The notes: a model not told the origin generated them from the letters alone. 64,000 nt of DNA from Candidatus Spyradenecus sp. (GCA_045535075.1 JAZSKX010000017.1:32001-96000); one strand, 5' to 3'; positions 105 through 64,000 are shown, counted from the stretch's first letter. Program-made: numbers and translations.

Positions 105-1361
105 ATGAAAACGGACTTTCAAAATAAAGCCGCGCGCGTTCCCGCAAAATTTAAGCCGGAACCGTTCGCCTACCATCAGGAACTGGAACTCGAAATCGCG
201 ACGCTGACCAACCTCGGCGAAGGCGTCGCGCGGCACGACGGCTGGGTCATTTTCGTTCCCGGCGCGCTTCCGGGCGAACGCATTCGCGCGCGCATCTGGC
301 ACAACGCGAAAAATTTTTCCCGCGCGGATTTGGTCGAAGTTCTCGTTCCCGCAAAGGAACGCGTCGAGCCGCTCTGCCCGCTTTTCGGCACCTGCGGCGG
401 TTGCCAGTATCAAAATTTTAATTACGAAGGACAACTCGCCTGGAAAACGCAGCAGGTTTCGGATTTGCTCGAACGCCTCGGGAAAATCTCGTTTCCCGTC
501 AATCCGTGCCGCGGCTCGCCGAAGCAATACGGCTACCGCTCAAAAATCACGCCGCACTTCGAACGTCCGCGCCAAGGCGAAACGAATTTTCCCATCGGCT
601 TCCTCGCCGCGGGAACGTCGCGCCGCATCGTCGATGTGCCCGCCTGCCCGATCGCGACCGACGCCGTCAACGCCGCGCTTCCGCGCCTGCGCGAGCAAAT
701 GCGTTCCCGCGCCGCACGCGGAGAATTTCGTCGCGGCGTAACGATGCTCATTCGGGAAACGCTCGAAGGAATCGCGACCGACCACAAAGCGCCCGTTTCC
801 GAGCGCGTCGGCGATTTGGTTTTAAAATTTGTTGCCGGAGATTTTTTCCAAAATAATCCGTTTATTCTTCCGGAATTTGTCGACTTCGGTGTTCGCGCCG
901 CGCGCGGGAACGGCGAGTGTAAATATCTTGTGGATACATATTGCGGGAGCGGGCTTTTCGCGCTTTCCGCCGCCAAGTATTTTGAAAAAGTGCTCGGCGT
1001 GGAAGTCAGCGAAGACGCCGTTGTCAAAGCGCGCGAGAACGCAAAATCCAACAGGCTGAGCAACTGCGAATTTACGGCGGGTTCCTCGGAAATTATTTTC
1101 GCGAAAGTACCGTTTTCGCCGGACGAAACCGCGCTCATCATCGACCCTCCGCGCAAAGGCTGCGACGAAGCGTTTATCTCGCAGCTGCTCGCGTTCGCGC
1201 CGCGCCGCGTCGTTTACGTTTCCTGCGGGCCGGACACACAGGCGCGCGACCTGCAGATGATTCTCGCAAGCGGGAAATACGCGCTTGAGGAAGTCCAGCC
1301 CTTCGACTTGTTCCCGCAAACGCGCCACATCGAAAATATCGCCGTTCTTGTGCGAAAATAA
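105..1361 (+). CDS. rlmD: 23S rRNA (uracil-C5)-methyltransferase, RlmD/TrmA family
   Basis: N-terminal TRAM-like segment, 4Fe-4S motif CPLFGTCGGC, SAM motif DTYCGSGLF, DPPRKG, catalytic YVSC, and DLFPQTRHIE. Confidence 0.9.
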   Translation: MKTDFQNKAARVPAKFKPEPFAYHQELELEIATLTNLGEGVARHDGWVIFVPGALPGERIRARIWHNAKNFSRADLVEVLVPAKERVEPLCPLFGTCGGCQYQNFNYEGQLAWKTQQVSDLLERLGKISFPVNPCRGSPKQYGYRSKITPHFERPRQGETNFPIGFLAAGTSRRIVDVPACPIATDAVNAALPRLREQMRSRAARGEFRRGVTMLIRETLEGIATDHKAPVSERVGDLVLKFVAGDFFQNNPFILPEFVDFGVRAARGNGECKYLVDTYCGSGLFALSAAKYFEKVLGVEVSEDAVVKARENAKSNRLSNCEFTAGSSEIIFAKVPFSPDETALIIDPPRKGCDEAFISQLLAFAPRRVVYVSCGPDTQARDLQMILASGKYALEEVQPFDLFPQTRHIENIAVLVRK

Positions 1362-1413
1362 CAAAAATCGTTCCCGCAAAATCAATCACGGGAACACATT
1401 CGAAATAGAAATT

Positions 1414-1495
1414 AACTCCGACTAAGCCGATTCCTGTACGGCTAACGCCTTACTCATTTTGAAGCGTTAGCGGGAAAATCGGCTTAATCGGAGTT
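1414..1495. repeat. 82-bp nested inverted repeat (long hairpin)
   Basis: Outer arms AACTCCGACTAAGCCGATT / AATCGGCTTAATCGGAGTT (18/19 complementary), with inner stem GCTAACGC / GCGTTAGC. Confidence 0.75.
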
Positions 1496-1737
1496 TTCCC
1501 GTCTCGGATTAATTTTTCCGCTTAAACAATAACTCTGCGGCATTGTTAATAATTTCCTCTTGGAAAAAATACATTTGCGGATTTATAAATTCGGAACTCG
1601 CCGTACGAGAAAGCGGCGAATTCGGATTGGGAGATTAAAAGAATCACTATTCGTTGCGGGAACGTGGGTTCCGGCCGGATTTTTGTCGTCTCATTTCCGG
1701 AAGATTTTCTCGGCAAAACAACAAACTTCCTTCTCTT

Positions 1738-4700
1738 ATGAACCACATTCTTTTTACCGGCTCAACATTTCTAATACTCACAACTACGGCCTTTAGCACC
1801 GATTCCGCAAGCGCCGTCCCTCCCGCACAAGCTTCCCAACAGGAAGCGCCGAAGCAAGCACTTCTGTTGGAAAATTCAAGCCGATCCGGGAACACGGTTT
1901 ATTTTCGTTTTTCCGATGCGGTAACTAAGGAAGACTTTGATAAAAGCCTCTCCGTCGAACCGGCGCTCAAAGTCGAAACCACGCAACAATACTCAAGCGG
2001 ATTTAGTGTTCACGCGGACTTTGAGCCGGGCGAAACCTACGCTATCCGCATTGCCCCGTCGCTTGCGGGAACGAAAACAAAATCGCTCGGCCAGGAAGCC
2101 GTTTTTACATTCATCGCGCCGAATCGCAGTACGGAAATCAATTTTCTGACGAACGGCAGACTCTTTCCGCTTTCCGCTCCGGATTTTTCGCTTCCCGTTC
2201 AAGCGTGCAACTCCGAAAAAATCGTTGTTACCGTCCGCCAAGCTTACGCGGATTCCGTCATTCCCTTCCTGTTTACGTCGGGAACCCGCAATTATTCGCA
2301 GGAAATTTTCTCCGGCGAAGCCCGCCCGAAAATGCGACCGAATCAACGCGAACGCTACGCGATTGATTTGGAGAAAATCGGAATTCCCCGAAAACCGGGC
2401 GTTTACGAAATCGAAGCGGAAGCCAAGCACGGGAACATGTATTATACCCCTTGGTCTTCCCGTATCGTCGTTGTCACGGATTTGGCGATTCAGGCGGTTC
2501 GCAACGGCGACGAACTTGCCGTTGCCGTTAAAACGATTTCGGAGAACACTGCCGTTCCCGCAAAAATCAGCATCTATTCCTCTAAAAACAGACTCATTGC
2601 AAAAGCACAATGCGATGCCGAAGGATTTGCCGAAATTGCAATTCCGCCGCTGAGCGACTCGGAGGATTCCGCCTGCTCGATTCTTGCCGAATACGGCGAA
2701 GACAAAAGCGTGCTGAGGCTCGACGACTTGTCTACTCAGCGCCAAAAATACGGATTCGAAAAACACGGCGCGAAAGCCCACGTTTTCCCCGAACGCGGAA
2801 TTTGCCGCCCCGGTGAAGAAATCAGCCTTTTCGCAAATCTGCGCAACGGCGAAGACAAACGGGCACAAGGAAACGTTCCCGCAGAATTCCACATTAAAGA
2901 CCCGAGCGGAAACAGCCTAACGCGAATTCCCGTCGTCGGCGACGAATTCGGTTTTTACAAAACGTCCGTCAAGATCCCAGATTTCGCGGCAACCGGCACA
3001 TACCACGCCGATTTGCGCATCCCCGGGCAGGAAGAAAGCACATTCGGGAGCACGCGCTTCTCCGTCGGCGAATACGTTCCCGACACGCTGGCAGTTTCGC
3101 TCAAAACGCAAAAAGACGGCATAGGCATTCGCGCGCGCGGGAACGCGGCGTATTATTTCGGCATGCCGCTCGACGGCGGGAAAATCCAAGTCAGTCTTTC
3201 TCTGAGCCACACACGCTTTGTCGCCAAAGATGAGGACTTGAAGGATTTTCTCTTCGGATTGCCCGGGAAGGAATTCGCCGACGGCATTTCGAAATCGGAT
3301 AAAAATCTCGTCTCCGATGCCCAAGGCAATTTTGAAACGTTTTTCGAGCTTCCGAGCTCCGTAAGCTACGCCGCCCCGATTCTTGCGAACGTAACCGCAA
3401 GCGCGGCATCAAGCGCCGGCGGGCGCAATGTCTCCGCAGGCGATTCGACGGAAATTCACACGGAAAAATTTTATCTCGGCACCCGAGAAAAATCGGTCGG
3501 CGAGAAGGAACGTGTTTTTGAAATCCGTACCGTCGCACCGGATTCTTCCAATATCTCCCTCGCGGGAACGCGGCTCAAAGCAACGCTCACCAGAAGCGAA
3601 TGGAATTACGTCGTGAGGGAAACCAACGGGCGCACAAGCTATAATTGGCAGGAAGAACACGTTCCCGTCGGAGAATTCGAGTTCGACGCCTCCGCGGAAA
3701 CCATCCGCGTTCCCGTGCCGAACGGCGGCAACTACACGCTGACGATTGCGCTCGCCGACGGAGAAAAAAACATTCTCCACAAGCGCGAATTTTGGCATTA
3801 CTACGGCGAAACGGGAAGCCGCTCCCGCAATACCGCACAGCTTTCTTTCCGGCTCGACAACAAAAAATACCTTCCCGGCGAAACCGCAAAAATTGCCTTC
3901 GATTCTCCGTTTTCCGGAAAGGCGGTTTTACTCATCGGTGAGAGCAGAATCGAAACGATGCAAGCGCTCGATGTTCGTGTCGGCGAAAACGTTTTCGAGA
4001 TTCCGATTCCCGCGGGAACGAACTCCGGAAGCCGGTTTTTCTCGGTAACGGCAAGCGGAAAAACGGAAGCCGGATCTCCGGACCTCATTCAACGCACCTT
4101 CGGAGTCGGTGTAATTCCCGTGAATCAGGACGCCCGGAAAATTTTTGTAAAAACCGATCTTCCCGGCATCATTCGCCCCGGCGAGAAAGCAAAAATTCGC
4201 GTCTCGCTTTCGGATGCCACGGGAAAACCCGTTGCCGGTAAAATCCAACTCTGGGCAGTTGATCGCGGCGTACTTGCACTAAGCGGATTCAAAACGCCGA
4301 ATACGTTTTCGTATTTTTTCGGTACATACGATTGCCCGTACGAATTCGGCGACAATTACACAAATTTCTACCCCTTACTTTCGCTCGACAAAAGACTCTT
4401 CGGCGGCGGAGCGGGAACGAATCGAAGCAAATTCCTCGACGCGACAGATCAATCCGAAAAAAGCGCGGTCGTTGTCCTCGAGACACTAAACGTTCCCGCA
4501 AGCGGCGAAGCAACGGCGGAGATTACACCGCCGGATTTTGACGGCGGGATGCGCCTCATGGCATTTGCGCTCAACGAAGAAAAAGTCGGCTCGGGAGAAA
4601 TCGATTTCATCGTTCGCGAACCGGTTTCGATACAACTTACCGCCCCGCGCGCCATCGCGCCGGGCGATGAATTCGAGCTCGTTGCCGAAATTTTCAACAC

Positions 4701-6408
4701 CGATTTACCGAAACAAAATTTCTCATGGGAATTAATTTACGACGGGAAACAAGTTGCCTCCGGCGGCGGGATTTCGTTGAACCGGAACGAAAAATACGCA
4801 TTGCGGAAACGCCTGACGGCGGAAAGCGACTGCGCCGCCCAAACCGCCGAATTGCTCGTTCGCGACGAAAGCGGAAATCTCTGCTCCCGCGAAGACGTCT
4901 GCGTTTCCGTACGCTCCCCGTTCCCGCAACGCGACAATGTCGTGATTTCGGAACTCGCGCCGGGAAGCGAAGCTCATTTTGAAAACGCCAATCCGGCAGG
5001 CGAAGTCTCGCTCGGTTCTCCCGCACTCACAATCGCCGGCGCGCTCCAATGGCTTGAGAATTATCCTTACGGATGTCTCGAACAGGTTTCGGCAGCGACG
5101 TTCCCGCTTCTTGCCGCAAGATCCCTCGCGGAAAACGGTGCCATTCCCGCCGCGTTCGCGGAAAGCGCCGCGACAAAAATTCGGGCCGGGCTCGCCCAAA
5201 TCGCAACAATGCGTTGCTACGACGGCGCATACGCGATGTGGCCTGACGGACGCACAGTTTGGGAAGCCGGCTCGCTGTTCGCATGGCACCTTGAATTGGA
5301 AGCCGATGCCTCCGGATTTCCGCTTTCGGAAAAACGGCAAAACGAAATTCGGGGAAACCTCATGCGATTCGCAGATTCCGCTAAAAAGCCGATCGCACAA
5401 CGCGCCTACGCGATCTACCTACTCGCCCTTACCGGAGAGCCCAAAGCGGCTGCTTTTGCAAAGTTGTTTTTATTCGGGAAAAAAGGCGACGACTTCTCAC
5501 GATTCCTCGTCGCAGCCGCGTTAGTAGAATCCGGATATGCTGCAGAAGGAATGAAAAACCTGCTCCCGCTACTTGAAAAAGATTTTTGGTCCGAGGAAAA
5601 ATCTCATTGGGATTCGTGCTTGGATTCTCCCATCCGCCGTGCGGGATTTGCCCTTCACATCCTCTCAAAAATCGCTCCGGACGCTCCCGCGAACAAAATG
5701 ATTGCACATTATCTTTGCAAAAAAATCCGCGACGACGGGCATTGGGGATCGACCCAAAAGAACGCGTGGGCAAGCTTCGGTCTCGCCGCCTATTTCGGGA
5801 AAAGCGCAGCCGGAGCGGAACGCGGAATCCTTAAAATTGACGGAGTCGAAACCGAGCTCAAAGGCTCAATGCGTATTCCCGGCGGAAAGCGCGTCAGCCT
5901 GAAAAATATCGGAGAACGCCCGATTCTTTGCTTTGTGCGTTCCCGCGAAAAAGCAAAATCATTTGAGCCGATCGCAAACGGGTTTGAAATCTCGCGAAGC
6001 TATCTCGATGCGACGGGAACGCCCGTAACGTCATGCAAGACCGGAGATTTACTGACCGTAAAAATTCGCGTCCGCGCAACAGAAACCGTCCCCAGCTCCG
6101 TCATTTGCGACCTGCTCCCCGGCGGACTTGAAATCGAAGACGAAACACTGCTGACGCGTGTTCGCTCAAACAATTCAATTCCGACCCAAGCTGCCGGATT
6201 CTTCGAACTCATGCGGGAACGCCGTTTCGATCGCTTCCTCGCGTTCGGAACCTTTTACCCGGGCGACAACTGGCATGAACTGACTTATCGCGTTCGAGCC
6301 ACGGCGCGCGGAAAATTCGTTATTCCTCCGATTCAAATCGAATCCATGTACGAAGGCGAAAAACGCGCAACATGGATGCCGGAAAATACAATTTTCGAAG
6401 TCCAATAA
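1738..6408 (+). CDS. Bacterial alpha-2-macroglobulin (YfhM family)
   Basis: Thioester motif YPYGCLEQ, MG-domain motifs (ERGICRPGE, LWAVDRGVL, DLLPGGLEIE, IESMY) and adjacency to pbpC. ATG at 1738 preferred over TTG at 1654. Confidence 0.92.
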   Translation: MNHILFTGSTFLILTTTAFSTDSASAVPPAQASQQEAPKQALLLENSSRSGNTVYFRFSDAVTKEDFDKSLSVEPALKVETTQQYSSGFSVHADFEPGETYAIRIAPSLAGTKTKSLGQEAVFTFIAPNRSTEINFLTNGRLFPLSAPDFSLPVQACNSEKIVVTVRQAYADSVIPFLFTSGTRNYSQEIFSGEARPKMRPNQRERYAIDLEKIGIPRKPGVYEIEAEAKHGNMYYTPWSSRIVVVTDLAIQAVRNGDELAVAVKTISENTAVPAKISIYSSKNRLIAKAQCDAEGFAEIAIPPLSDSEDSACSILAEYGEDKSVLRLDDLSTQRQKYGFEKHGAKAHVFPERGICRPGEEISLFANLRNGEDKRAQGNVPAEFHIKDPSGNSLTRIPVVGDEFGFYKTSVKIPDFAATGTYHADLRIPGQEESTFGSTRFSVGEYVPDTLAVSLKTQKDGIGIRARGNAAYYFGMPLDGGKIQVSLSLSHTRFVAKDEDLKDFLFGLPGKEFADGISKSDKNLVSDAQGNFETFFELPSSVSYAAPILANVTASAASSAGGRNVSAGDSTEIHTEKFYLGTREKSVGEKERVFEIRTVAPDSSNISLAGTRLKATLTRSEWNYVVRETNGRTSYNWQEEHVPVGEFEFDASAETIRVPVPNGGNYTLTIALADGEKNILHKREFWHYYGETGSRSRNTAQLSFRLDNKKYLPGETAKIAFDSPFSGKAVLLIGESRIETMQALDVRVGENVFEIPIPAGTNSGSRFFSVTASGKTEAGSPDLIQRTFGVGVIPVNQDARKIFVKTDLPGIIRPGEKAKIRVSLSDATGKPVAGKIQLWAVDRGVLALSGFKTPNTFSYFFGTYDCPYEFGDNYTNFYPLLSLDKRLFGGGAGTNRSKFLDATDQSEKSAVVVLETLNVPASGEATAEITPPDFDGGMRLMAFALNEEKVGSGEIDFIVREPVSIQLTAPRAIAPGDEFELVAEIFNTDLPKQNFSWELIYDGKQVASGGGISLNRNEKYALRKRLTAESDCAAQTAELLVRDESGNLCSREDVCVSVRSPFPQRDNVVISELAPGSEAHFENANPAGEVSLGSPALTIAGALQWLENYPYGCLEQVSAATFPLLAARSLAENGAIPAAFAESAATKIRAGLAQIATMRCYDGAYAMWPDGRTVWEAGSLFAWHLELEADASGFPLSEKRQNEIRGNLMRFADSAKKPIAQRAYAIYLLALTGEPKAAAFAKLFLFGKKGDDFSRFLVAAALVESGYAAEGMKNLLPLLEKDFWSEEKSHWDSCLDSPIRRAGFALHILSKIAPDAPANKMIAHYLCKKIRDDGHWGSTQKNAWASFGLAAYFGKSAAGAERGILKIDGVETELKGSMRIPGGKRVSLKNIGERPILCFVRSREKAKSFEPIANGFEISRSYLDATGTPVTSCKTGDLLTVKIRVRATETVPSSVICDLLPGGLEIEDETLLTRVRSNNSIPTQAAGFFELMRERRFDRFLAFGTFYPGDNWHELTYRVRATARGKFVIPPIQIESMYEGEKRATWMPENTIFEVQ

Positions 6409-6415
6409 ATCGAAA

Positions 6416-8572
6416 ATGCATCATCGTTTTTCGATGAGATTTTCCGGGAAATTCCTGCGAAACATCGTAATGCTTGGCGGCATTGCGATGTTTTTTGCAG
6501 GCGCATTTTGGCACTGGGCGTTCCCGCATCTTTTCGTTTTTGATGAAAAACAACTCAACGCGCAAATCCCCGCAACGATTTTTACCGATTCCCGCGAGAA
6601 CGCCGTTCATACCGAAGCCGGAAGCGATTACGCACTACGTTTCCCCGTAAGCTTGGGAGATCTTCCGAAGCATTTAATCGATGTCACGCTTGCCGCTGAG
6701 GACAGGCGCTTCTTCGAACACGACGGCGTGGACTTGTGCGCCGTCGCTCGAGCGGGAGCGCAACTGCTTACAAGCGGGCGTATCATTTCCGGTGCGTCAA
6801 CTGTAACGATGCAATTAGTTGCTCTCGGCGACGAACGACGGGAACGTTCTTTCCTGCGGAAAATTGTTCAAATGGGCAAAGCGCGAAATTTGGAACTGCG
6901 TCGGAGCAAAGAAGAAATTCTCGAAGAATATTTTAACCGACTCCCCTACGGCGGAAAAATTTACGGAATCGAAGCCGCCGCCAACTACTATTTCGGGCGT
7001 TCGGCACGAGAACTCAATCTCGGCGAATCCGTCCTGCTCGCAGGAATTCCGCAACGGCCGAACCGATTCCGCCCCGATCGCTTTCCCGAAGCCTCTCTTG
7101 CGCGACGGGAACGCGTCCTTCAAATGCTCATCAATCAAGGCATTTTCACAAAAGAAAAAGCGGACGCTATTCGACACGAGCCGCTGAGATTTCGGGATTT
7201 TGAACAGCCCGCGTTCCCGCGCGCCGAAGATCCGCAATTTTTTCTTTGGGCGAGAAGTAAACATCCCGAAATCCGAGGAAAATTCACGACAACCCTGGAT
7301 ATGACAACACAGAAAATTGTCAAATCGGTTGTTGCAGCTCAATTAAGGGAACTTTTTTCCGTCCGCGACGGAGCCGTAATTGTTATTGAAAACAAATTAC
7401 ATGCCATCCGTGCATTTCTGGGAACAACGGATTTTTATAATCCGCGGGACGGACAAGTTAATGCCGCGACTTCCCGGCGATCACCGGGTTCTTTGCTCAA
7501 GCCGTTTATCTTCGGCGAGGCTGTCAACGGCGGACTGATTGTTTCGGAAACACTCATGGACGACTCGCCGATTTCCGTCGGAGAATATCGCCCGGAAAAT
7601 TTTTCGGGAAAATTTCTCGGAAAAGTTCCGGCAGAAATCGCATTGTCAAAATCTCTGAACGTTCCCGCAGTGCGCTTACTCGAAGAACTCGGTGTCGAGC
7701 GCAACATCGAAATGCTTAAACAGTTCGGAATTCATTTTTCCGAAGGCAAAACTGCCGAAAGCATCGGACTTTCGTTGGCGCTCGGCGGTGCGGAAACAAC
7801 GCTTCTCCAACTTGCCGAAGCCTACTCTGCGCTTGCAAACGATAGCGTTCCCGCAAAGCTTCAATGCCTAAAAAAAGAGAATCCGCCGGAAAGCGAAAAA
7901 GCGATTTGGAATCCGGGAAGCGCCGAAATGGTTTTGCAAATGCTTCGCCTGAGCCCGCTTCCGGAAGCGGAAAATTTGGAAGTCGCATGGAAAACGGGAA
8001 CGTCCAACGGTTTGCGCGACGCATGGTGCATCGCCGTTACGCGCGAATGGACGGTTGCCGTCTGGTTCGGGAATAAGGACGGTTCTCCCGCGCCCGAACT
8101 TGTCGGTGCCGAAGTCGCCGCGCCCGTCGCCGGACGAATCATAAACGCACTCTACCGCGGAAAAATTCCTGATAATTCCGGGCGCGGTCTGCATTTCCGC
8201 TCCGCTCTTCTGTGCGCCGAAAGCGGCTTGGCGGCGAGTTCGTTCTGCTCCAAAACGTTCCCGGCAAAAGCAGTCGTAGGCATTCCGCTGAAAACGTGCC
8301 GCCGATGCAAAAGCCTCGCTCCGAAAAGTCTTTTCTTGCAGGAAACTCGAATTGTTCAACCCGTCAGCGGAACTTACCGTCGAGGCTTCAACGGAAAAGC
8401 ACGCTTTATTCTTAAAAGCATTCCCCCAAAATCGCACTGGTATTTAAACAGTAATTACATCGGCTTTCTCAACTCGGGAACGCCCTTGGAAATTCCGCCC
8501 GGGAAACACCGACTCTTCGCGTGGGGAGGCGAGAAATATTCCGCCGCCAAACTCGAAATCGAAGTGAAATAA
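6416..8572 (+). CDS. pbpC: Penicillin-binding protein 1C
   Basis: Transglycosylase motifs EDRRFFEHDGVD and GASTVTMQ; transpeptidase motifs SLLK, SLN and KTGT; directly downstream of the macroglobulin gene. Confidence 0.9.
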   Translation: MHHRFSMRFSGKFLRNIVMLGGIAMFFAGAFWHWAFPHLFVFDEKQLNAQIPATIFTDSRENAVHTEAGSDYALRFPVSLGDLPKHLIDVTLAAEDRRFFEHDGVDLCAVARAGAQLLTSGRIISGASTVTMQLVALGDERRERSFLRKIVQMGKARNLELRRSKEEILEEYFNRLPYGGKIYGIEAAANYYFGRSARELNLGESVLLAGIPQRPNRFRPDRFPEASLARRERVLQMLINQGIFTKEKADAIRHEPLRFRDFEQPAFPRAEDPQFFLWARSKHPEIRGKFTTTLDMTTQKIVKSVVAAQLRELFSVRDGAVIVIENKLHAIRAFLGTTDFYNPRDGQVNAATSRRSPGSLLKPFIFGEAVNGGLIVSETLMDDSPISVGEYRPENFSGKFLGKVPAEIALSKSLNVPAVRLLEELGVERNIEMLKQFGIHFSEGKTAESIGLSLALGGAETTLLQLAEAYSALANDSVPAKLQCLKKENPPESEKAIWNPGSAEMVLQMLRLSPLPEAENLEVAWKTGTSNGLRDAWCIAVTREWTVAVWFGNKDGSPAPELVGAEVAAPVAGRIINALYRGKIPDNSGRGLHFRSALLCAESGLAASSFCSKTFPAKAVVGIPLKTCRRCKSLAPKSLFLQETRIVQPVSGTYRRGFNGKARFILKSIPPKSHWYLNSNYIGFLNSGTPLEIPPGKHRLFAWGGEKYSAAKLEIEVK

Positions 8573-8610
8573 AAAAAAGAGCCGACTCATCTTACGTGAA
8601 TCGGCTCTTT
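8571..8610. terminator. Probable bidirectional intrinsic terminator between convergent pbpC and phoU
   Basis: Stem AAAGAGCCGA...TCGGCTCTTT with a flanking A tract. Confidence 0.7.
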
Positions 8611-8629
8611 CGTTCCCTTATAAAAACCT

Positions 8630-9292: not shown

Positions 9293-9350
9293 CGTCTAAC
9301 TTTCTCTTTAATTTTTTTACGGACAATCGATAGTTTTGACAGCAAATCCA

Positions 9351-10145: not shown

Positions 10146-10182
10146 TTTATCATTACAATTTTTTTGTTTTCTGAATTTTAAT

Positions 10183-56500: not shown

Positions 56501-57585
56501 GCACCCAAGCGCGACGCTTCCGAAAGGGAAGACGTTACCGCACCGTTCCCGCTGGAGTTTTGGGGATCGATCGTTCCCGCAATCGTCAGCGAACCGGCAT
56601 TCCAAAGCGTACGCCCGTATTCCAAATCACCGTAGCCGTACTTTGCCAACGCTCCCGTGACATCCACGGAAATCGCATCATTGACGGCGGCATTCAAAAC
56701 AACGCTTCCGCCTGCGACGAAGAACTTCCCGCTGAAATCGCGGTTCTCGCTCAGCATCGTAAGCTTGCCTTCGCCGGTTTTATAAATATCCGCATCCCCG
56801 ATGATATAACCGACGGATCCTCCGTCCTGCAAAGTCCCGTTCGGATTTGTGCTATCCCACGCATCAATATGAATATTGACGTGATAAATATCGTCTGCCG
56901 ACTTCGTCGTGTTCCCGTTGTTGCGCCCGACATCCAAAAATGAGCCTGCCTGGTCGTTATTTTCCCCGGCTCGGAGATTGTGGAGGAAAACAAAAACATT
57001 TTTCCCCGCCATCGGTTTTTCCCCGCCGTTCGAAAAATTGTAAAGAAAGCGGCTTTGCCCGACATTTAAATAGGCTCCGTTCCAAAGCGTGATCTTGTCA
57101 ACACCCGCCATCTCGCCTTCCCGCGGCAATCCGGCAACCATGCTGTTCACCTGAGGACCATAGTCTTTCCACAAATTCACATAGCCGCTGAGCAAAAGCG
57201 TTCCGGATCGGACGACCAGCTCTCCCGCATTCCAAGAGGGATATTGGATATCCTTTGGCCACGTTTCTACGATTGAACCGGCTTCACTTACGCTAATTGA
57301 GGCCTTCTCGGAGAGATTGGACTGATAAACGGCATAAACATCCGTTCCGTCCGAACGCCCGAAAATTTCAAGCGTTCCGTCGCCGGATTTGACTAGCGTT
57401 CCCGAGCCGGAGAAATTGGAGGAAATCGTCAAATTGGTATCGTTATCAACCTCGATTGTTCGATCTGCGTAGTTGGTAAAATTGGTTCCGTCCGCCCGGT
57501 CGTACGGTGCTGCGCCGGAAAGAACGGCACCGGCAATGAGACCCGCGGCCAATAAAGTTGTTTTCGTAAGAATCGGGAAACGCAT
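50512..57585 (-). CDS. Large autotransporter (2357 aa), paralog of the downstream gene
   Basis: Signal peptide, LVKSGDGTL-type repeats, and a barrel ending GFRHCF. Confidence 0.9.
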   Translation of the reverse strand: MRFPILTKTTLLAAGLIAGAVLSGAAPYDRADGTNFTNYADRTIEVDNDTNLTISSNFSGSGTLVKSGDGTLEIFGRSDGTDVYAVYQSNLSEKASISVSEAGSIVETWPKDIQYPSWNAGELVVRSGTLLLSGYVNLWKDYGPQVNSMVAGLPREGEMAGVDKITLWNGAYLNVGQSRFLYNFSNGGEKPMAGKNVFVFLHNLRAGENNDQAGSFLDVGRNNGNTTKSADDIYHVNIHIDAWDSTNPNGTLQDGGSVGYIIGDADIYKTGEGKLTMLSENRDFSGKFFVAGGSVVLNAAVNDAISVDVTGALAKYGYGDLEYGRTLWNAGSLTIAGTIDPQNSSGNGAVTSSLSEASRLGADVRVLFDRTERRDQNTVQVTYYKEAFFTDSSAGTLVVNNNEAIRNFQAMFANGVGALDTNLSAASAVQNAADSADKDAPIVAGTGSGSYLAVKEGSVLALYQEAGKGGIYKGTICGVNEAGDAAGVNADGSLIKGGTVVKYGAGDLALMLEGANYEKLALLEAGNVVVNITAIDLDPGSYDWTKGEAYNAANWVKEPGLYAADGVNFTLVENATETLKTRINLQDVHFSTFALIDTLGGPIDVSDSRNPGTIELGVEQRFITGEVFVERGLTLVLTAQDLAGYTDAEGNYRYYDVNGFGTYTTELGETFDNVAYYKNALGERVYYYTDAAGKEQVISGADLERLSYTDSVEFSGGSVGNAKAVVLAGKVGTETDLYAGSQISTLSFNNTNQKINNLTGDYYSKVDLGRSTLTVCTTLDATDDVLGISGKTGNGDELEYSRFSGAITGTGNLVKTGAKTLTLDGGSMISYMGATVIEEGAINATKSQSLWNSSMVWMNAGTTVTFAGAQNLVSLVGGTNTELSLENGDLQLGADASRRSVLNSAYQASVGNALGVIVTDDLGNSDRILQTYPSTSGNDSDKLVKTYLKPILDFRGSGLTENQAEALVAYFKNEQFGSSERKALKELFGRDVEPNTVTVADVTRLYVKLLGQNAGTDSADLNEMIDRLSFNGRLAANNIIKVGDERVTIAGTVEAKSLKVLGGAVEMDVDAYTEGTFADGISVAAGATLSVNTGTDASKEYTFDKALTGDGNFEKKGEGSLTFGSEVNYFGKTIVAGGNLTMSLYSRSESDVKAQGDIFVSNANSTLTLNQADGVVTWAGTMDNKGNLVKAGTGVLTLNGSTTLSGNLAVEAGELALVDADFVGAGKSVSVAAGATLELSATKAATVDRAFAGAGTIEKSGTGDLTLRNTGSAGKDFVGTLSVTEGNLYLATENLLSDSASANIGGNGSLYIATNQAFKELAGGGNVFINTDAPTALTLALKNTNGVAFTNNAASYATTVNRVVSTDYSAFGAYTGSVGVYGTNATATEFKVGGTGTFVFNGELESQVALSVSDSATLITTILDHDVALTGENARVIFATDSADARLDGKVLFDASVPAGNRKLGKIGTGSLTIESSNAASWLGSDLQVLEGELRLEGSDAFKFNSAVVVAGATLSLECAYDVTPDLSKIEGSGTIALLETASSSSETLELTGTSMLTSTAVDGGRYFNGVLDAGSFKIVVTGTGVKLASLQTTGGLETSKQVFLAQNHDTTIGGSFNANVVVSGKGCLNIEDVQATGTILVDNGKVQVSAEASKLNNTPTGGLRVKNDATIYFTTNSDRSNRLSDVEVRMDEGAKVGTVSLIKSGNGTSSLAFDGVADGGKSLLFASDALWAAATTSANTRLVLGVDQGELIVSGLSAIDSAVGFTTLASDAKNSAGTFVIRAGEANEVLDRSISGTGNVAFRGSKTTSVSANQTYTGTTTVENGTTAEFKNVSLATSILKVENGGTMKGGVKLTGVKVPAIAKTTSAATTADATVGGNFVNDGTVVLDVNNGDSIDYAGTFENNGVIRLTGTAAATRGNELVLFNSLSGTTYSKEELTALFGYGKLTNGATSLMLSQSDTGVISAYAVGTSLAEVGGLRDGLAGSFTDVLDEMSGVDAGIATGIIFESELLANWGPIGVALNQVSASALADEIAKLSPIGYASMIAMSRNSFENDWRAIAERASHRRYDSTNELYDNGLEFFARAQTSVVENGSGSDAANFDFNSYGALVGFDVKPDDFSLYGFTLGYDYGSASLHNSGGKIRSDGFRATAFASGLLGDGSIFLDGALHLGLNSYDIERNTLVGKSEGDTDGWNAGAAVTLGKGFMLSKDKNKLVVVTPYIGLSYLFSKVGSFDESGIAGLDVDSFDAHSVRGRLGATFDWKFPLGDWEARVSLDLAYHHEFVDDDADIDARFKQYRDTAFDVSAAIGSSDAFSIAPSMTVDLSERDSLSLGYMLQYGTDEQINHNFNAGFRHCF

Positions 57586-57602
57586 AGGAAAAAAGATTAA
57601 AA

Positions 57603-58760
57603 TTATTCGTTGGGTTCGAGAACAAAGGTCGTACCTTCTTTAAGAATGTAGCCTTCGGGGGATTTTTCTAAAATGGCTAACGCTCCGGAGCCGGTTACCG
57701 CCGCCAAGCGGACAAGAATCGGCTCGCCGTCCAACGCAACGACGAGGCGGCATTTCGCTCCCTCCTTCAATCCTTGCGTATTGCTGACGGCAATCTGGAA
57801 ACGCGTATTGCTGAAAAGCATACTGATTTTTCCGGTGATTTTCGCGGGAACGGCGGGAGCGGCTTTTTCTTCCGCAGGTTTTTCCGCCGGAGCTGCTTCG
57901 GAAGCAACTTCCACCGGAATATCCGTTGCGACTGCCGGCGCGTCCGAACCGGGCATAATCGCAGAGCGAGCCGCAAATGCACCGCTCCAAACCTTAATCA
58001 TTCGCCCTTTGAGCGGGAGCAAAATTTCAACTACGCGAGAGCCGACGGGAAGCTCCGTCAGCGCACCGTCCGTCAGCGTCGCGGGAGCGCCGTCAACCTT
58101 GACAACCGCGCCTTGCTGAAGCGCCAACACCAAGGGAACGTCCGGCAAAACAATTTTACCGTCGGGTTTTTGCGCCGGAATGTTCCCGCGCAAATCAAAA
58201 TTCAGTTTTGTCATTTCTCCGGCTCGGATTTTTACGCGTCGCGTCTGCACGCCGTAGCGGGAAGAACGCGCCTCCACGGTTACTTCCTGCCCGAGCGGCA
58301 ATCCGCCCATCATCAGAGAACCGTGCCCTTTGAGTTCTCCGTCAACAAACAGCGCGACATCTCCCGGAAGGCACGAAACCATCAATTCTCCCGTGCGCAT
58401 TTTAAGCTCCGGAGCCAATTTCGTAATTTCTCCGCCGCGCAACAAAACATTTTCAATGCGGCAGGGAGCCTGCGCGTCCCGATGCTCAAAAATAAAAACA
58501 TGCGTTCCCGCGGGGACATTTACGGAATCAAAAACGCCGTCGCTCCCGACGGTGCCGACGGGAAGTTTTTCTTCTCCGGCTAAGCGAAAAATTTGAGTTC
58601 CGGGTTCTGCCCTGACAATGAAAAACGGACGTGCGACCGCCGCAGAAGCCGCTTCCGCAAAGGCTCCGACGGGAACGACGATCCATGCGGCGAATACGGC
58701 AATCACCCAAAAAAACCAAGGAACAAACGAAATATTCTGTAAGCGAGTGAGAAAAGACAT
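57603..58760 (-). CDS. PEGA-domain exported or membrane-anchored protein
   Basis: N-terminal hydrophobic segment and PEGA-like units (GELMVSCLPGDVALFVDG...VKIRAGE). Confidence 0.65.
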   Translation of the reverse strand: MSFLTRLQNISFVPWFFWVIAVFAAWIVVPVGAFAEAASAAVARPFFIVRAEPGTQIFRLAGEEKLPVGTVGSDGVFDSVNVPAGTHVFIFEHRDAQAPCRIENVLLRGGEITKLAPELKMRTGELMVSCLPGDVALFVDGELKGHGSLMMGGLPLGQEVTVEARSSRYGVQTRRVKIRAGEMTKLNFDLRGNIPAQKPDGKIVLPDVPLVLALQQGAVVKVDGAPATLTDGALTELPVGSRVVEILLPLKGRMIKVWSGAFAARSAIMPGSDAPAVATDIPVEVASEAAPAEKPAEEKAAPAVPAKITGKISMLFSNTRFQIAVSNTQGLKEGAKCRLVVALDGEPILVRLAAVTGSGALAILEKSPEGYILKEGTTFVLEPNE

Positions 58761-58898
58761 CTAGGAAAAGGGGAAATATGAGCAGGGTTTGTTTCCTGCC
58801 ATAACACAGCTTTTGACGCGGGAAGTCAAGCACGCTATTAGAGAGAATTCCGCTTAAAATACTCGCGTAAACACCGAAAAGTCCGCCCTCGCATGCAC

Positions 58899-58932
58899 AA
58901 AAAAAATCCGAAAGGCGAAAACCTTTCGGATT
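58899..58932 (-). terminator. Intrinsic terminator after ferredoxin
   Basis: Stem AATCCGAAAGG / CCTTTCGGATT with a U tract on the minus strand. Confidence 0.8.
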
Positions 58933-58949
58933 AAAGAAGAGACGGAAAA

Positions 58950-59183
58950 TTATTCCCCGTCGTCGCCGATTGCATCAACCGGGCAAGAACCCTTTGCTTC
59001 TTCGCAAAGAGCAATTTCTTCGTCCGTCGTCGGTTGCTTGATGACGATCGTCACGCCGTTGTCGTCGTCACGCGCGAAGAAATCGGGTGCCATTTCGCGA
59101 CAGACGTCGCAATCGATGCACTGGTTGTCAACGTAGAACTTACCGGGAACGCATCCCTCATTTTTATCATCAATGTTTGCCAT
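58950..59183 (-). CDS. Monocluster 4Fe-4S ferredoxin
   Basis: CIDCDVC...CPVDAI; ATG at 59183. Confidence 0.92.
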   Translation of the reverse strand: MANIDDKNEGCVPGKFYVDNQCIDCDVCREMAPDFFARDDDNGVTIVIKQPTTDEEIALCEEAKGSCPVDAIGDDGE

Positions 59184-59193
59184 AGAACTCCCC

Positions 59194-59221
59194 AGTATGC
59201 GACTCTTCCCTTCGTTGTCAA
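59194..59221 (-). promoter_or_regulatory. Sigma70-type promoter of ferredoxin
   Basis: TTGACA-N16-CATACT, ending 10 nt before the ATG. Confidence 0.5.
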
Positions 59222-59327
59222 AGGTAAAGCCGAAATTATCTGTTGTTGATCGGATGCTCCCGCACGAAAAGCGGAAGCTGAAACTTGGAGCTTTCTTAAT
59301 TTCGCCGCTTGCGTTAGTCTTTCGGGC

Positions 59328-60533
59328 ATGGCTTGCAATAATATTTCCGGTTCTCAAGGTCGCTACGCCGCCCGCGGCGTTTCTTCGTCCAAAGATGAAG
59401 TTCACGCCGTCGTCGATAAAATCGACAAAGGGCTTTTCCCGGGCGCGTTTTGCAAAATCACGGAAGATTTTCTCACCGGGAATCCGGAATTGTGTAACTG
59501 CACGCACTCCGACGGCTCGGGAACGAAATCATTGCTCGCCTATATGTATTGGAAAGAAACCGGCGACGCCTCCGTTTACCGCGGGATCGCACAAGACAGC
59601 ATTGTCATGAACATCGACGATCTGCTCTGCATCGGCGTTACCGGCAACACGATTATTTCCTCGACCATCAATCGCAACGCCAAGTCCATCCCCGGCGAAG
59701 TTCTTGCCCAACTCATCGGCGGGACCGAAGAATTTTTGCAAATGCTCCGCGACTATGGCGTCGATATTCGCTCCGGCGGCGGCGAGACCGCCGATGTCGG
59801 CGACCTTACGCCCACCTGCACCGTCGATTCCTGCGCAACTTCCGTGCTCCCGCGTTCCCGCGTTGTCGATGCCGCCCGCATTCGCCCCGGACTTTCCATC
59901 GTCTCGCTCGCGTCTTCGGGAACTTGTGCTTACGAACCCGTTGAAAACTCCGGCATCGCCTCCAACGGGCTCACCTCCGCGCGCCACGAAATGCTTTCTA
60001 AATACTACGCAGAAAAATATCCGGAAACTTTCGACAAGCGCATCGACCCGGAATTTGTTTACTGCGGCCCCTACAAAATGACCGACGCGCTCCCGGGATC
60101 AACGCTCACCGTCGGGAAAGCCCTGCTCTCGCCGACACGCACCTACGCGCCGTTTGTTCTGCGTTTGCTCAAGGAGCTTCCCGTTGAGCGCGTCTATGGG
60201 CTCATTCATTGTTCGGGCGGCGCGATGACGAAGTGCATCCGCTTCGGCTCCAACGTTCATTTCATTAAGGACAATCTGCTTCCGGTCCCGCCGATTTTCA
60301 AAGCTATTCGCGACGCAAGCAAAACCGATGCCGCCGAAATGCACCGCGTTTACAACATGGGGCAACGTCTCGAAATTTACGTCGAAGAAAAAGACGTTCC
60401 CGCAGTTCGGCAAATTGCGGATTCGCTCGGAATTGTCTCACAGGTTACGGGACGCACCGAAGCCTCCCAAAAAGCTGACGGCTCCAACCACATCACGCTC
60501 ACGAGCGCCGACGGCGAAATCGTCGAATATTAA
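59328..60533 (+). CDS. purM: Phosphoribosylformylglycinamidine cyclo-ligase (AIR synthase)
   Basis: [37 protein letters not shown] and YNMG. Confidence 0.88.
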
Positions 60534-60630
60534 TTCGAACTCTAAAAACCGGAATCGGCAATTCCCTCGCTTTCGTCGAACAAAACAGGGGTTTGCCGAT
60601 TTTCCTTTCTCCGGATAAATCGATTTCCCA

Positions 60631-61251
60631 ATGAACACGCTTCAAACTCTCGGCATCGCCGTCGCGCTGGCATCGGACGCAATGATTGTCGCCTTTTCCT
60701 ACGGCGCAATCATCCGCTCCGGACGCCGAGCCGCCGCTCTAAAACTCGCGGGAACGACGGCGTTTTTTCAGGCGCTCATGCCGATTTTGGGCTTCATGGC
60801 GGCAAACAGCGTTCTCCGCTACTGCACAAGCTGGGAACCTTGGATCGCCTTTGCCGTTTTCGGAACTCTCGGCGGAACAATTATTTACAACGCAATTTTT
60901 AACCACGAAAATAAAAACGCCGCAATGCAGGACGACGGATGCGCCTGCGGGAAATGCGTATTGGGCGGCAAACGCCTGATCGCCGTCGGCATCGCAACGA
61001 GTATCGACGCGCTTTTTGTCGGCGCCGGAATGCACTGCCTCGCGGGAGCGCACGTCGAGCTCGCAGACGTTTTTCCGGCGGCGACAATTATCGGCGGCAT
61101 AACTTTCTTCGGGGTTTTAAGCGCATTCGGTGTTTCTCGGATTTTCAGAAAACTGCCGCAGCGAATCATGGAAATCGCGGCAGGATTAATTCTGCTTTCT
61201 CTCGGCGTCATCGCGCTCGCCCAACACCTTTGCGCGGAGGCGGGAAAATGA
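60631..61251 (+). CDS. mntP: Manganese efflux pump, MntP family
   Basis: ALASDAM, FQALMP and IATSIDA motifs; multiple TM helices. Confidence 0.8.
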   Translation: MNTLQTLGIAVALASDAMIVAFSYGAIIRSGRRAAALKLAGTTAFFQALMPILGFMAANSVLRYCTSWEPWIAFAVFGTLGGTIIYNAIFNHENKNAAMQDDGCACGKCVLGGKRLIAVGIATSIDALFVGAGMHCLAGAHVELADVFPAATIIGGITFFGVLSAFGVSRIFRKLPQRIMEIAAGLILLSLGVIALAQHLCAEAGK

Positions 61252-62234
61252 AATCCGAAAACATCCCTTTCTCTCAAAACCGCGAAGCAAGTATCGGCGC
61301 ACTCGGCGAAATCGCGCTCCTGAAAAAAATTGCCGCATGGCTTGCTCCGTTCCCGCAAGTTGCCCGCCCCTCCCCGCGCGGCATCGGCGACGATTGCGCT
61401 GTTTTCCCGAACGAACACGGGAACGCCCGACGCCTCGTAACCACCGACAGCGTTATTTTTTCCAAGCATTTTGACGCAAGCGTTTCCCCGCAAGCCGCCG
61501 GAGCCAAACTAATCAAACGCAACGCAAGCGACATTGCGGCAATGGGCGGCGTTCCCGCGGATGCCGTGCTTTCACTGGTCATGAGCCGCGACATCAAAAT
61601 CGAGTGGTTAGAAAAATTTTACGCGGGAATGGCGCAAGCCTGCGCCGGGCTCAGCATCGAACTCGCCGGCGGCGATGTTGCCTCCGCACCGGCGGGAACG
61701 CAAATTTTCATTGCAACGCTCACGCTCACCGGATTCTGCGAAAACGAACCGCTCTTACGGGCAGGCGCACAAGTAGGCGATGTCGTTTTCGTCACGGGAA
61801 CACTCGGCGGCAGCATCGAAAAAAAACACTTTGCGTTTACCCCGCGCCTGAAAGAGGGGGAATTTTTGGCAAGTTTCCCGCGAGAGAAAATTCGCGCCTG
61901 CATGGATATTACGGACGGCTTGGCAAAAGACCTGCGGGAAATCGTTCCCGCAAACGCGCATATTGAATTCGATTTTTCCGCAATTCCGATTTCCGACGAA
62001 GCGGAAAAACTTTCCGGCGGCAACCGCGAACTCGCGCTCGAACACGCATTTTGCGACGGCGAAGACTACGAACTTGTTTTTTGCGTCGCAGCGGAATTCG
62101 AATCAACGCTTAAGGCTCTTTGGCGGGAACGCTTTCCGCAAACGCCCTTGGCAAGAATCGGGCAAATTGCCTCCGGAGCCGCATCGTTCCCGCAACTCGG
62201 GAAATCCGGCTCCGGCTACGAACATTTTCGTTAA
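61248..62234 (+). CDS. thiL: Thiamine-monophosphate kinase
   Basis: GIGDDCAV, NASDIAAMG, GGD, MDITDGL, GEDYEL and GYEHF; ATGA overlap with the mntP stop. Confidence 0.92.
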   Translation: MKSENIPFSQNREASIGALGEIALLKKIAAWLAPFPQVARPSPRGIGDDCAVFPNEHGNARRLVTTDSVIFSKHFDASVSPQAAGAKLIKRNASDIAAMGGVPADAVLSLVMSRDIKIEWLEKFYAGMAQACAGLSIELAGGDVASAPAGTQIFIATLTLTGFCENEPLLRAGAQVGDVVFVTGTLGGSIEKKHFAFTPRLKEGEFLASFPREKIRACMDITDGLAKDLREIVPANAHIEFDFSAIPISDEAEKLSGGNRELALEHAFCDGEDYELVFCVAAEFESTLKALWRERFPQTPLARIGQIASGAASFPQLGKSGSGYEHFR

Positions 62235-62445
62235 AAATTTCGCGCCTCAGGCGAAAGCGCTTTTATCGCCCGGCAAACACAATTTTCCTCTCTCATCACG
62301 GAAACCTTAAGAAATGAGAGAGCGTTGATCCTACCCGTTCCGAATTACCGAACCCCGGTTGCTGATTTTCACGGTTGATTTTTCCTACTCTGCGGCTATA
62401 TTTTCGCCATCTCTAAAAAACCAATCACTACGATAGGATATAAAA

Positions 62446-64000
62446 ATGAAAAAATCCGCTCTCTCCGGGATCTCCGTATTCACACTTTTCGCTGCCGCTA
62501 CACTCTGCGCAGAGGAAACCGACACAAGCACCGCGCCGGAATTGGGCGGCGCGACGTCTGCAGCGGTTAGAGCCTTAATTCATATCATCGGGGACGCAGT
62601 GAAGATTGAGGCAAAGCTCATAAAGATTCTGATTAATGCTACGGACGGCGTTGACGAGGAAGTTCTGATTTACGGGCATAATAATGAGGAGCAAAAAGGC
62701 GACGGGATTACTTTTACGGATGGAGGAGGATACTCGGGAGATGACATTGTTACCGGCTATCATATTAAAGACCTTTATCCGGAGGCATCGAATAGCGGAC
62801 AAATCGACGTAAAAGGAATTGAAGTCTATTCGCCGTATTCCGGGAAAGAGGCGGTTTGCGGGATTTACCACGAACAAGCCGGGAACGGTGCAAGACAAGG
62901 GCTTGGCAAGATCGCAGTCTCGGAAAAGGTGGACGTTTCGTATTTCGAAGACAACGCAAGCGTCGCCGGGATTTGGCAAAAAGGCTCAGACACAAGCGAA
63001 CCGCCGTATTTTTACGAGAGCGTGAAATTAAACGGCGTTAATATTTCGGCAACGGGAAGCGGCGCAACGGCTTACGGAATTGTTCAGGACGGGAACGCGC
63101 ACATAGACAAGAACCTTGAGCTTCACGGAAGCGTTTCAAGCTCACGCGGGAACGCGTTCGGTGTTAAGGGCGGCGTTTACGGTGGAAACATCTTGGCGGA
63201 CCTGACCGTCTCGGCGGGCGAAAGCGGAGTCGCCGCCGGAATTTATTTAGCCAAAACCGCGGGAAGCATCGACGGTTCAATCGACGCAGACGGAAACAGG
63301 ATAATGAATTCTGACGGGAGCGTCAAAAAAGCAAAGCTCACCGTAACATCTAACACAGCCTCGGTCGGCATCCTCTTGGGCGGGGAAAGCACATTCGACT
63401 CAGACGGGAACGTAACCGGCGAAACCAAAGGCGGGAACGTTTCCGGCGCACTCGCGAATTACGATATTTCGGTGGAGAGCAAATCTCAGAATCCGGAAAA
63501 CATGGCGATTGGCGTTTACATGCACAACGGCGCTTCGGTCGACTCGATGAGCGATTTGAAGATTTCCGCCATTTCTTACTACGGTCCCGCCGCCGGATTC
63601 GTTTACGACAACACGGGAACGGAAACAATGTCCGCAGGGACAACGATAAGCCGTTTGGATATTACGGCGGAAACGTTTACCTCCGTGTTTGAAGAGTCCG
63701 ACTGCGGACGCACCGCCGGGATTCTCATCGGAAAAGATGTCGATTTTAAAGTCGATGATTCGTCAATCACCGTCACGCCGGGGAACGGGCGGGACAGTTA
63801 CGGTTTGGCTTACGGGAAGAACGTTTCCGGCGATGCGGAAAACGGCGGGAGCGCAGACGACGGCGGGGTCGGGATCTTCAATCACACAAACAAAGATTCG
63901 TCCGGCTTGGAGATTACGAATTCGCAAATTGTCGCTTACGCCTGTAACACGGCTACGAAAGATGCGAATGCTTACGGGCTTTTTGTAGGCTATGACAAGA
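62446..64000 (+). CDS. Large secreted beta-helix-like surface protein (runs off the window)
   Basis: MKKSALSGISVFTLFAAATLCA signal peptide; frame open to the window end with recurring A-x-G-I units. Absent from the ORF track because it has no stop. Confidence 0.8.
   Translation, partial: MKKSALSGISVFTLFAAATLCAEETDTSTAPELGGATSAAVRALIHIIGDAVKIEAKLIKILINATDGVDEEVLIYGHNNEEQKGDGITFTDGGGYSGDDIVTGYHIKDLYPEASNSGQIDVKGIEVYSPYSGKEAVCGIYHEQAGNGARQGLGKIAVSEKVDVSYFEDNASVAGIWQKGSDTSEPPYFYESVKLNGVNISATGSGATAYGIVQDGNAHIDKNLELHGSVSSSRGNAFGVKGGVYGGNILADLTVSAGESGVAAGIYLAKTAGSIDGSIDADGNRIMNSDGSVKKAKLTVTSNTASVGILLGGESTFDSDGNVTGETKGGNVSGALANYDISVESKSQNPENMAIGVYMHNGASVDSMSDLKISAISYYGPAAGFVYDNTGTETMSAGTTISRLDITAETFTSVFEESDCGRTAGILIGKDVDFKVDDSSITVTPGNGRDSYGLAYGKNVSGDAENGGSADDGGVGIFNHTNKDSSGLEITNSQIVAYACNTATKDANAYGLFVGYDK

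Follow-up and report, generated by a model that had tools for sequence, protein, structure and literature searches.

The 64,000-nucleotide stretch of Candidatus Spyradenecus sp. DNA analysed here (GCA_045535075.1 JAZSKX010000017.1:32001-96000, referred to as the window) is populated throughout by a short asymmetric word, CGTTCCCG or, read from the other strand, CGGGAACG. The properties of this word leave about an even chance that its consensus, gCGTTCCCGYr, is a genus-specific self-recognition signal of the type represented by the DNA uptake sequences (DUS) of Neisseriaceae and the uptake signal sequences (USS) of Pasteurellaceae. A broader proposition, which we hold to be a little less probable than that, is that the genus possesses a third, independently evolved uptake self-recognition system, which would be unprecedented outside Proteobacteria and denser than any known (up to 1 copy per ~210 bases), that this system drives the exchange of gene-sized alleles between species, and that it is off in two lineages. 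The window corresponds to G000:C16:32001-96000, G000 being the source genome (1,949,087 bases in 18 contigs, GC 52%). Over positions 1..64000 the word is scattered on both strands at ~3 copies per kb, 111 times as CGTTCCCG and 78 times as CGGGAACG on the plus strand.

In G000 as a whole this is the most frequent of all 8-mers, with 5159 copies, or 1 per 378 bases, which together make up ~2.1% of the chromosome. Expectations for the whole genome are 183 copies under an order-1 and 268 under an order-2 Markov model, an excess of ~20-28x. A reading made beforehand from the sequence of the window alone (the sequence-only reading) had described a pervasive 7-mer, CGTTCCC, and this holds: the window has 197 copies compared with 15.35 (standard deviation (sd) 3.7, maximum 24) in 100 dinucleotide-preserving shuffles, and the longer form GCGTTCCCGC occurs 48 times against 0.53 expected. 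The seven copies claimed for positions 1-1400 were all located (137+, 254+, 344+, 611-, 702+, 906-, 1369+). The accompanying chance figure of ~0.2 per 1400 bases was too low, as the shuffles give ~0.34, and the conclusion is unchanged. Similarly, two copies do overlap as a palindrome at 19028..19043, inside atpG, in an open reading frame (ORF) matching the Pfam ATP-synt family (gamma subunit). When the full consensus was derived the core proved sharper than the 7-mer, namely the 8-mer CGTTCCCG with one or two weak flanking positions: G precedes it in 47% of copies, the base after it is C in 63% and T in 25%, and the next is G or A. As the flanks are nearly information-free, the core is best described as an 8-10-base word and not as a piece of a longer repeat. 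Variants with one mismatch are mildly enriched when the mismatch falls in the first three positions and mostly at or below expectation when it falls in the last five (TCCCG).

Codon usage and a strong replichore bias had both been named in advance as explanations that might remove the need for a recognition signal. ORFs were called crudely, as the longest frames of at least 100 codons taken greedily and without overlap, which gave 1505 ORFs on ~90% of the DNA, and 1254 of them contain at least one copy. On their coding strand the word occurs 1824-1828 times as CGTTCCCG and 2625-2631 times as CGGGAACG, and all six reading frames are occupied, in agreement with the earlier remark that both strands and varied frames are used. 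Shuffling synonymous codons within ORFs (n=30) gave 192 (sd 12) and 322 (sd 17) copies of the two forms where 1828 and 2631 are observed; no shuffle exceeded 218 for CGTTCCCG or 358 for CGGGAACG, so that the enrichment survives a codon-aware null at 8.7x. Permutation of codon order (n=20) gave expectations of 74 and 88. The word is denser between genes (3.83 copies per kb) than within them (2.52 per kb). The two contig strands carry 2632 and 2527 copies. GC skew, computed in 40-kb windows along the 18 contigs, whose origin is unmapped, served to infer the leading strand. By this measure 2156 of 3905 copies in coding DNA (55%) and 327 of 626 between genes (52%) have their G-rich form on the G-rich strand. 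This is a weak bias, and the slight surplus tracks the orientation of genes and the GC skew. Intervals from one copy to the next are nearly exponential in distribution, with a coefficient of variation (CV) of 1.10. Even spacing was thereby rejected, very short gaps being underrepresented, and helical phasing was rejected as well, as pair distances have a 3-base periodicity alone and no 10-11-base signal.

The distribution of the word coincides with a genus, as the comparison across relatives suggested in the sequence-only reading made clear. AtpD of G000 is 76-77% identical to proteins of Opitutales, Opitutaceae and Verrucomicrobia metagenome-assembled genomes (1/64 of the collection scanned), which places the organism in Verrucomicrobiota, probably near Opitutales. 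An extended 10-mer form of the word is found at 138-3301 copies per genome and is enriched in 19/19 genomes of the genus, whereas in four sister genera it reaches at most 64 copies, is enriched in 0/118 genomes and does not rise above its reversed control. One genome from each of 16 other families of the order contained 0-49 copies. Densities of the 8-mer in sampled DNA of the genus vary, from 4.7 per kb in G003 (120 kb; 1 per 213 bases) through 2.9-3.2 in G016, G007 and G010 to 0.67 in G001 and 0.27 in G014. Two genomes assigned to the same genus, G008 and G009, are motif-rich despite divergent RpoB proteins (L324, L311), which are just 71-73% identical to that of G000 and count as more remote than the RpoB proteins of other families of the order (70-76%). 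In the sister-genus genome G019 the word CGGGTACG was considered as a dialect and rejected: a single strand of a 40-kb portion of one contig accounts for 99 of its 105 copies, and their flanks have a 3-base periodicity. We read this as a giant repetitive gene, and the excess accordingly as a local codon effect and not as a word of the whole genome. The stretch concerned (G019 C2:1-40000; L223, L224) holds ~99 copies of CGGG[T/C]ACG on one strand, a different codon being used in the context in which the genus of G000 has CGGGAACG.

Within the genus the word is, as far as aligned genomes can tell, actively kept, silent sites included. BLAST alignments of G000 to G016, G007 and G010, which may be word-anchored, use overlapping windows and involve three related genomes, were restricted to segments less than 85% identical. 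In these, 76 of 117 copies (65%) were identical, compared with 245 of 1196 words of the same composition (20.5%), 17% of other words with two CpGs and 13.8% of the remainder. Codons specifying the same amino acid, when their third base falls inside the word, were identical in 54 of 62, 52 of 62 and 111 of 126 cases (84-88%), and elsewhere in 56-59% (Fisher p 2e-5 to 1e-12).

The sites of G000 can also be followed in other members of the genus. Of 161 such sites, 119 are kept in eleven motif-rich genomes whose divergence is similar, and these genomes have 44 private copies. In G014 only 3 of 21 sites are kept (background 13%) and in G001 11 of 34 (background 30%), while G002 keeps 17 of 31 and G013 14 of 24 (background 32%); all 45 copies observed in these four genomes are shared and none is private. 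Three sites in atpD and atpA are kept in all examined genomes of the genus but two: G014 has mutations in all three of them, and G001 has lost one. A tree of RpoB, which is tblastn-based, rests on one protein and does not include G016-G018, has the order (G014,(G004,(G000,(G001,(G002,G013))))), with two motif-rich clades outside this group. Because the motif-rich G004 and G000 separate the poor lineages in this tree, two losses are the simplest reading. The two lineages in which only decaying relics of the word persist are G014 and G001/G002/G013. The genus is thus split into 15 maintaining and 4 decaying genomes.

Phage and island sequences contain little of the word. In G000 the two most extensive motif-poor regions are Mu-like prophages, at C16:184-220 kb (0.43-0.50 copies per kb) and C8:22-34 kb (0.42 per kb). 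The longest motif-free gaps coincide with low-GC restriction and defence islands, namely an NgoBV/HpaII-type system, type I systems and the reverse-transcriptase end of an island that also encodes an MmeI-family enzyme. In the window, the longest motif-free stretch (22112..25583; 3471 bases, GC 44%) belongs to a low-GC island at 21427-28761 in the ATP synthase operon, between the atpA-adjacent region and atpF, which contains a Bro-N gene and genes without a Pfam match and of which G016 lacks the greater part at the corresponding position. Word-saturated phages were looked for and dismissed: the pair hairpin described below occurs in 39 of 2.9 million viral contigs, and none of these 39 has host-like density around it. 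As to content, the C16 prophage, which extends over 184-221 kb, encodes Gam, transposition proteins, a terminase, a portal protein and a Dam-like methylase and causes a local switch in GC skew, and the C8 prophage, over 20-34 kb, encodes Gam, a transposase and a C5 methylase. The defence island with the MmeI-family restriction-modification enzyme (995 aa; G000 C2:15779-23600) further encodes three other proteins, one of 937 aa with a reverse-transcriptase domain, one of the T5orf172 type and one of the SocA/Panacea-HTH type.

A minority of copies, ~6%, occurs in inverted pairs. The arrangement CGTTCCCG-spacer-CGGGAACG is strongly enriched near 12-base spacers, and the reverse arrangement is not enriched in G000. 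With spacers of 4-20 bases there are 154 such pairs. Convergent genes flank 45 of them and divergent genes 5, a further 72 come after a gene in tandem arrangement, and 32 fall in ORFs; 117 of the 154 are therefore downstream of genes, typically with an A-run before and a T-run after. These ~150 pairs of G000 are strong predicted bidirectional terminators. The strongest hairpins in the window have folding energies of -25 to -32 kcal/mol (z -5.5 to -8.9). The best example is CGTTCCCG-N12-CGGGAACG at 13286..13334 (-32.4 kcal/mol, z -8.85), which lies between convergent genes, is preceded by an A-run and followed by a T-run, was also recovered by a terminator scan and is read as a predicted bidirectional intrinsic terminator. 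Another terminator-like hairpin is located at 15948..15997 (-27.6 kcal/mol, z -6.6), and a third pair, at 11917..11960 (-25.0 kcal/mol, z -5.5), falls within the crude ORF 11195-12136 for a transporter permease.

Two further pairs border autotransporter genes. One (43200..43250; -16.9 kcal/mol, z -4.0) lies just beyond the stop-codon end (43251) of a gene for a 2411-aa autotransporter, and a weaker one (42798..42843; -13.3 kcal/mol, z -2.1) lies around the start-codon end (42800) of a gene for a 1471-aa subtilase autotransporter. Window positions 38385-57585 are occupied by three consecutive autotransporters, this subtilase (S8) and then two of 2411 and 2357 aa with PATR repeats. The last two genes (43251..57585, minus strand) read CGGGAACG on their coding strand in 42 copies and have the opposite orientation in a single one, and are the sole site in the window where the orientation of copies follows the gene. 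Elsewhere in the genome a motif-pair terminator forms part of a ~150-base repeat with 32 genome matches (including G000 C5:106000-106170), in which it is joined to the end of a coding region and a conserved AT-rich element of ~25 bases. By eye this coding end resembles an anchor of the PEP-CTERM type.

Gene exchange appears to be frequent in G000. This genome is a mosaic: some single-copy segments, gene-sized at 1.5-5 kb, match G016 and G007 at 96-99% identity, and the genes next to them match at 67-85%, are not syntenic and are found on other contigs in those genomes; since the segments are single-copy in G000 they were not taken to be insertion sequences. In the window the phosphate transport and ATP synthase genes at 8630..21415 are 97-98% identical to G016 and G007 and contain 35 copies of the motif. 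This block is a run of three near-identical segments of 3.0-5.0 kb each, which suggests recent exchange. The proportion of sampled DNA at least 95% identical to G000 was 26% for G016, 32% for G007 and 12% for G010, with a second mode below 75% or unmatched; these percentages are biased upward because the samples were chosen around the shared ATP block. It was 0% for G001 (95 kb), G014 (70 kb) and G003 (120 kb), and a 20-kb piece of the motif-poor G001 has no match of at least 95% outside its own clade. RpoB of G000 is merely 84-85% identical to that of G007 and G010 (G016 being outside the comparison), and the bimodal identity points to recent introgression between distant congeners. Bimodality against G016, G007 and G010 is seen at G000 C5:100-120 kb, at C1:100-120 kb and at window positions 8630-30875.

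Exchanged segments contain 3.55 copies per kb. A role of the word as recombination joint was rejected, as segment ends are at a median of 124-136 bases from the nearest copy compared with 110 for random points. We also do not accept the atpD+atpA tree (built without G017) as a species tree: the atp region is 97-98% identical where most genes are at 67-85%, and RpoB groups G000 with G001, G002 and G013, so that the tree is best regarded as the gene tree of an exchanged segment.

The reading that we favour, at about even odds, is that these observations have a common basis in DNA uptake. A surface DNA receptor, probably within the type IV pilus/ComEC uptake route, would prefer DNA bearing the word, DNA from the same genus would be taken up and recombined more often, and alleles bearing the word would replace alleles that had lost it (molecular drive). 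The word would then build up wherever it is tolerated, i.e., at silent or tolerant codon positions, in intergenic DNA and in terminator stems. The decay in two lineages can also be placed in this scheme, since a process that lineages can lose with no visible harm is more readily seen as accessory, like specificity of uptake, than as part of a core function of the chromosome. None of the refuting conditions named in the sequence-only reading that sequence analysis could address went against it, and its suggestion that this lineage has its own self-recognition signal gains from the codon null, the strand symmetry, the restriction to a genus, the terminators, the depletion in prophages and islands and the conservation of sites. 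It gains nothing from dialects, ComEA or the competence genes, and a function like that of the cyanobacterial highly iterated palindrome HIP1 stays a rival.

Much of the uptake machinery is present. G000 encodes ComEC, DprA, a secretin, PilM, two PilB-like ATPases and a third one, PilC, and pilins (ComM, ComF and PilD were not searched). Of the competence genes that the earlier reading had proposed to look for, ComEC, DprA, the secretin and the pilins were thus found, and ComEA and a ComP-like domain were not. The dedicated receptors of the known systems are the minor pilin ComP in Neisseria and, by prediction, ComN in Pasteurellaceae, and Pfam is said to hold a ComP model. Loss of competence genes was considered as the cause of the decay and rejected, as the motif-poor genomes have ComEC, DprA, the pilus ATPases and the four minor pilins in intact form and a secretin domain as well. 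Two small ORFs upstream of ComEC were likewise rejected as a ComEA substitute, since they match no family and one of them is fragment-like with a YD-repeat-like motif. A second secretin, in an open frame of ~780-880 aa, is found only in the motif-poor G001, G002, G013 and G014 and in the motif-rich G004, G012 and G018, and the same genomes, G012 excepted, have an extra PilB-like ATPase (438-444 bits), which in G014 adjoins the minor-pilin cluster.

Several points weigh against a self-recognition signal for uptake. First, the competence genes do not discriminate. ComEC occurs in 41/41 relatives, including sister genera without the word; DprA is intact and at least three pilus/secretion ATPases are present in 19/19 genomes of the genus, motif-poor ones included; the secretin is found in 18/19, the exception (G005) being a genome that is 92% complete, and its domain is present in motif-poor genomes; and the cluster of four minor pilins is undamaged in motif-poor genomes as well. 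Since these genes are equally present in motif-poor and sister genomes, no competence gene tracks the word. Second, no specific receptor emerged: ComEA was not found, HHH_3 and TIGR00426 matching the Tex protein alone, and six pilin-like proteins of G000 scanned against Pfam have the N_methyl motif and no further domain, a ComP-like one included, although a receptor of another fold may exist. That uptake is the step at which the word is read, and which protein would read it, are matters that we infer. Third, the ends of exchanged segments are no closer to the word than random positions, and recent sharing with G016, G007 and G010 only, not with the motif-rich G003, means that exchange need not depend on it. 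Fourth, conservation at silent sites would be expected equally from a function exerted on the DNA itself. Fifth, samples of 57-120 kb from G001, G014 and G019-G022 showed neither a dialect nor a replacement word, and no report of uptake or transformation in the group was found in the open-access papers and preprints searched. Finally, DUS and USS occur at ~1 per kb, and the genus word, at 1 per 378 bases in G000 (1 per 213 in the G003 sample), has ~3x that density.

The most serious competitor, which we consider unlikely although clearly worth attention, is that an abundant intracellular protein reads CGTTCCCG in a manner similar to HIP1, for nucleoid structure, repair entry or the like, and that the word is maintained by purifying selection with no link to uptake. 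HIP1 is described as an octamer of undetermined function that is 15-300x over-represented, occurs more than once per gene and is conserved within and between ORFs (PMC5861425). The fold enrichment and density of the genus word match these values, and its conservation at orthologous and silent sites is the same argument that the authors there put forward for selection (PMC5861425). That no competence gene tracks the word is also as expected if uptake is not involved. On the other hand the word is non-palindromic and lacks helical phasing, its use in terminator stems and its poverty in phage DNA are not specifically predicted by such a function, and no candidate reader protein was identified. 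The decay of two lineages to background retention with no visible loss of core genes would, moreover, be odd for a core chromosomal function. HIP1 has a periodicity of 10-90 kb and, as Elhai is said to have reported in 2015, goes with matching orphan methyltransferases.

The last point leads to methylation. It is improbable that, as proposed for HIP, a methyltransferase marks the word and mismatch repair then turns near-matches into matches. One-mismatch variants at or below expectation in the last five positions would be in line with such conversion, and G000 has a complete MmeI-family enzyme (995 aa, five MmeI domains); members of this family recognise asymmetric words of 6-8 bases with an adenine next to the last base, which CGGGAAC would fit. 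However, the MmeI methylase domain was found in just 9/18 congeners, among them the motif-poor G001, and was not found in the motif-rich G003, G006, G007, G008, G009, G012 and G016. C5 methylases were similarly found in 9/18 congeners, in none of 8 motif-rich genomes, and those of G000 sit in a low-GC restriction island and a prophage. PF01555 has no match in G000, Dam-like matches are confined to the Mu-like prophage, and three type I methylases are at or next to motif-free low-GC gaps. The matching methyltransferase that the sequence-only reading had put forward as an alternative is therefore not apparent: none tracks the motif among the families searched, a search that did not extend to other methylase families or Vsr.

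A polar signal of the type of Chi or of the FtsK orienting polar sequences (KOPS), read directionally by RecBCD/AddAB or FtsK, is very improbable. The word does share with these signals that it is an asymmetric G-rich 8-mer over-represented in core DNA, and recombination is frequent in this genome, but no more than 55% of the copies in genes and 52% of those between genes place the G-rich form on what is presumed to be the leading strand, and this slight surplus goes with the direction of genes and with GC skew. The word is not associated with the places where exchanged segments end, and Chi/KOPS systems need a far lower density than is seen here. It is scarcely credible that the word is a readerless by-product of dipeptide or codon preferences, of terminator stems or of a repeat element scattered over the genome. 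In favour of this one could cite that 42/43 copies in the pair of giant autotransporter genes are co-oriented, with CGGGAACG as the coding-strand form, that CGGGTACG is in local excess in a giant gene of the sister genus for the same kind of reason, and that a 3-base periodicity exists. It is contradicted by an 8.7x excess over the synonymous null, a higher density between genes than within them, the use of six frames, flanks near information-free, only ~6% of copies in pairs and conserved silent sites inside the word.

If the word is indeed an uptake signal like DUS or USS, its occurrence in Verrucomicrobiota would mean that self-recognition before uptake has evolved repeatedly, and gene flow and the limits of species could be approached through it in a group that is uncultured. 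The decaying lineages would then serve, in the manner of a natural knockout, in the search for a receptor that is not related to ComP. Whatever the reader, the word is a practical marker that separates the chromosome of the genus from phage and island DNA, helps to date acquisitions and tells lineages in which the process is active from those in which it has stopped. The contrast between 15 and 4 genomes, in two lineages, makes the question of the reader directly testable by comparative genomics, a question likewise unsolved for HIP1 after decades. In the open-access papers and preprints we found no description of the word itself among the matches listed, nor any of uptake sequences in Verrucomicrobia or Opitutales, of over-represented words in Opitutales, of natural transformation in Verrucomicrobiota or of highly iterated or hyperabundant words in Verrucomicrobia; PMC5217627 does not mention Verrucomicrobiota.

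The word may finally be compared with the systems it resembles. It differs from TGTATCAC, which is a different word of a different lineage, and is the denser of the two. Chi, KOPS and the architecture imparting sequences (AIMS) are strongly co-oriented with replication. The genus word is like them an asymmetric G-rich 8-mer over-represented in core DNA, but it is not co-oriented with replication (52-55%). With HIP1 (GCGATCGC) and the alternate cyanobacterial palindromes it shares that it is a hyperabundant octamer with more than one copy per gene (PMC5861425). In contrast to the palindromic HIP1 it is asymmetric, and none of the methyltransferase families searched follows it.

The comparison with DUS and USS, together referred to as DUES, goes furthest. 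A 2025 preprint names sequence-specific DNA uptake in two families only, both Proteobacteria, and gives as marks of these sequences their terminator pairs, their core-genome conservation and their scarcity in newly acquired DNA (bioRxiv 10.1101/2025.10.24.684340). The genus word differs in belonging to another phylum, Verrucomicrobiota, in its unrelated sequence, in a shorter, 8-base core and in having only ~6% of its copies paired; no dialects, ComP-like domain or ComEA were found with it, and it is known from sequence alone. On the evidence of the genomes compared, all the sequence-level marks listed there for DUS and USS are nevertheless present except dialects. Like them the genus word is short and asymmetric and has thousands of copies amounting to ~2% of the chromosome. 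Both strands carry it, coding as well as intergenic DNA contains it, and its inverted pairs form predicted terminator stems; core DNA conserves it, recently acquired DNA has little of it, and its range is a single lineage.

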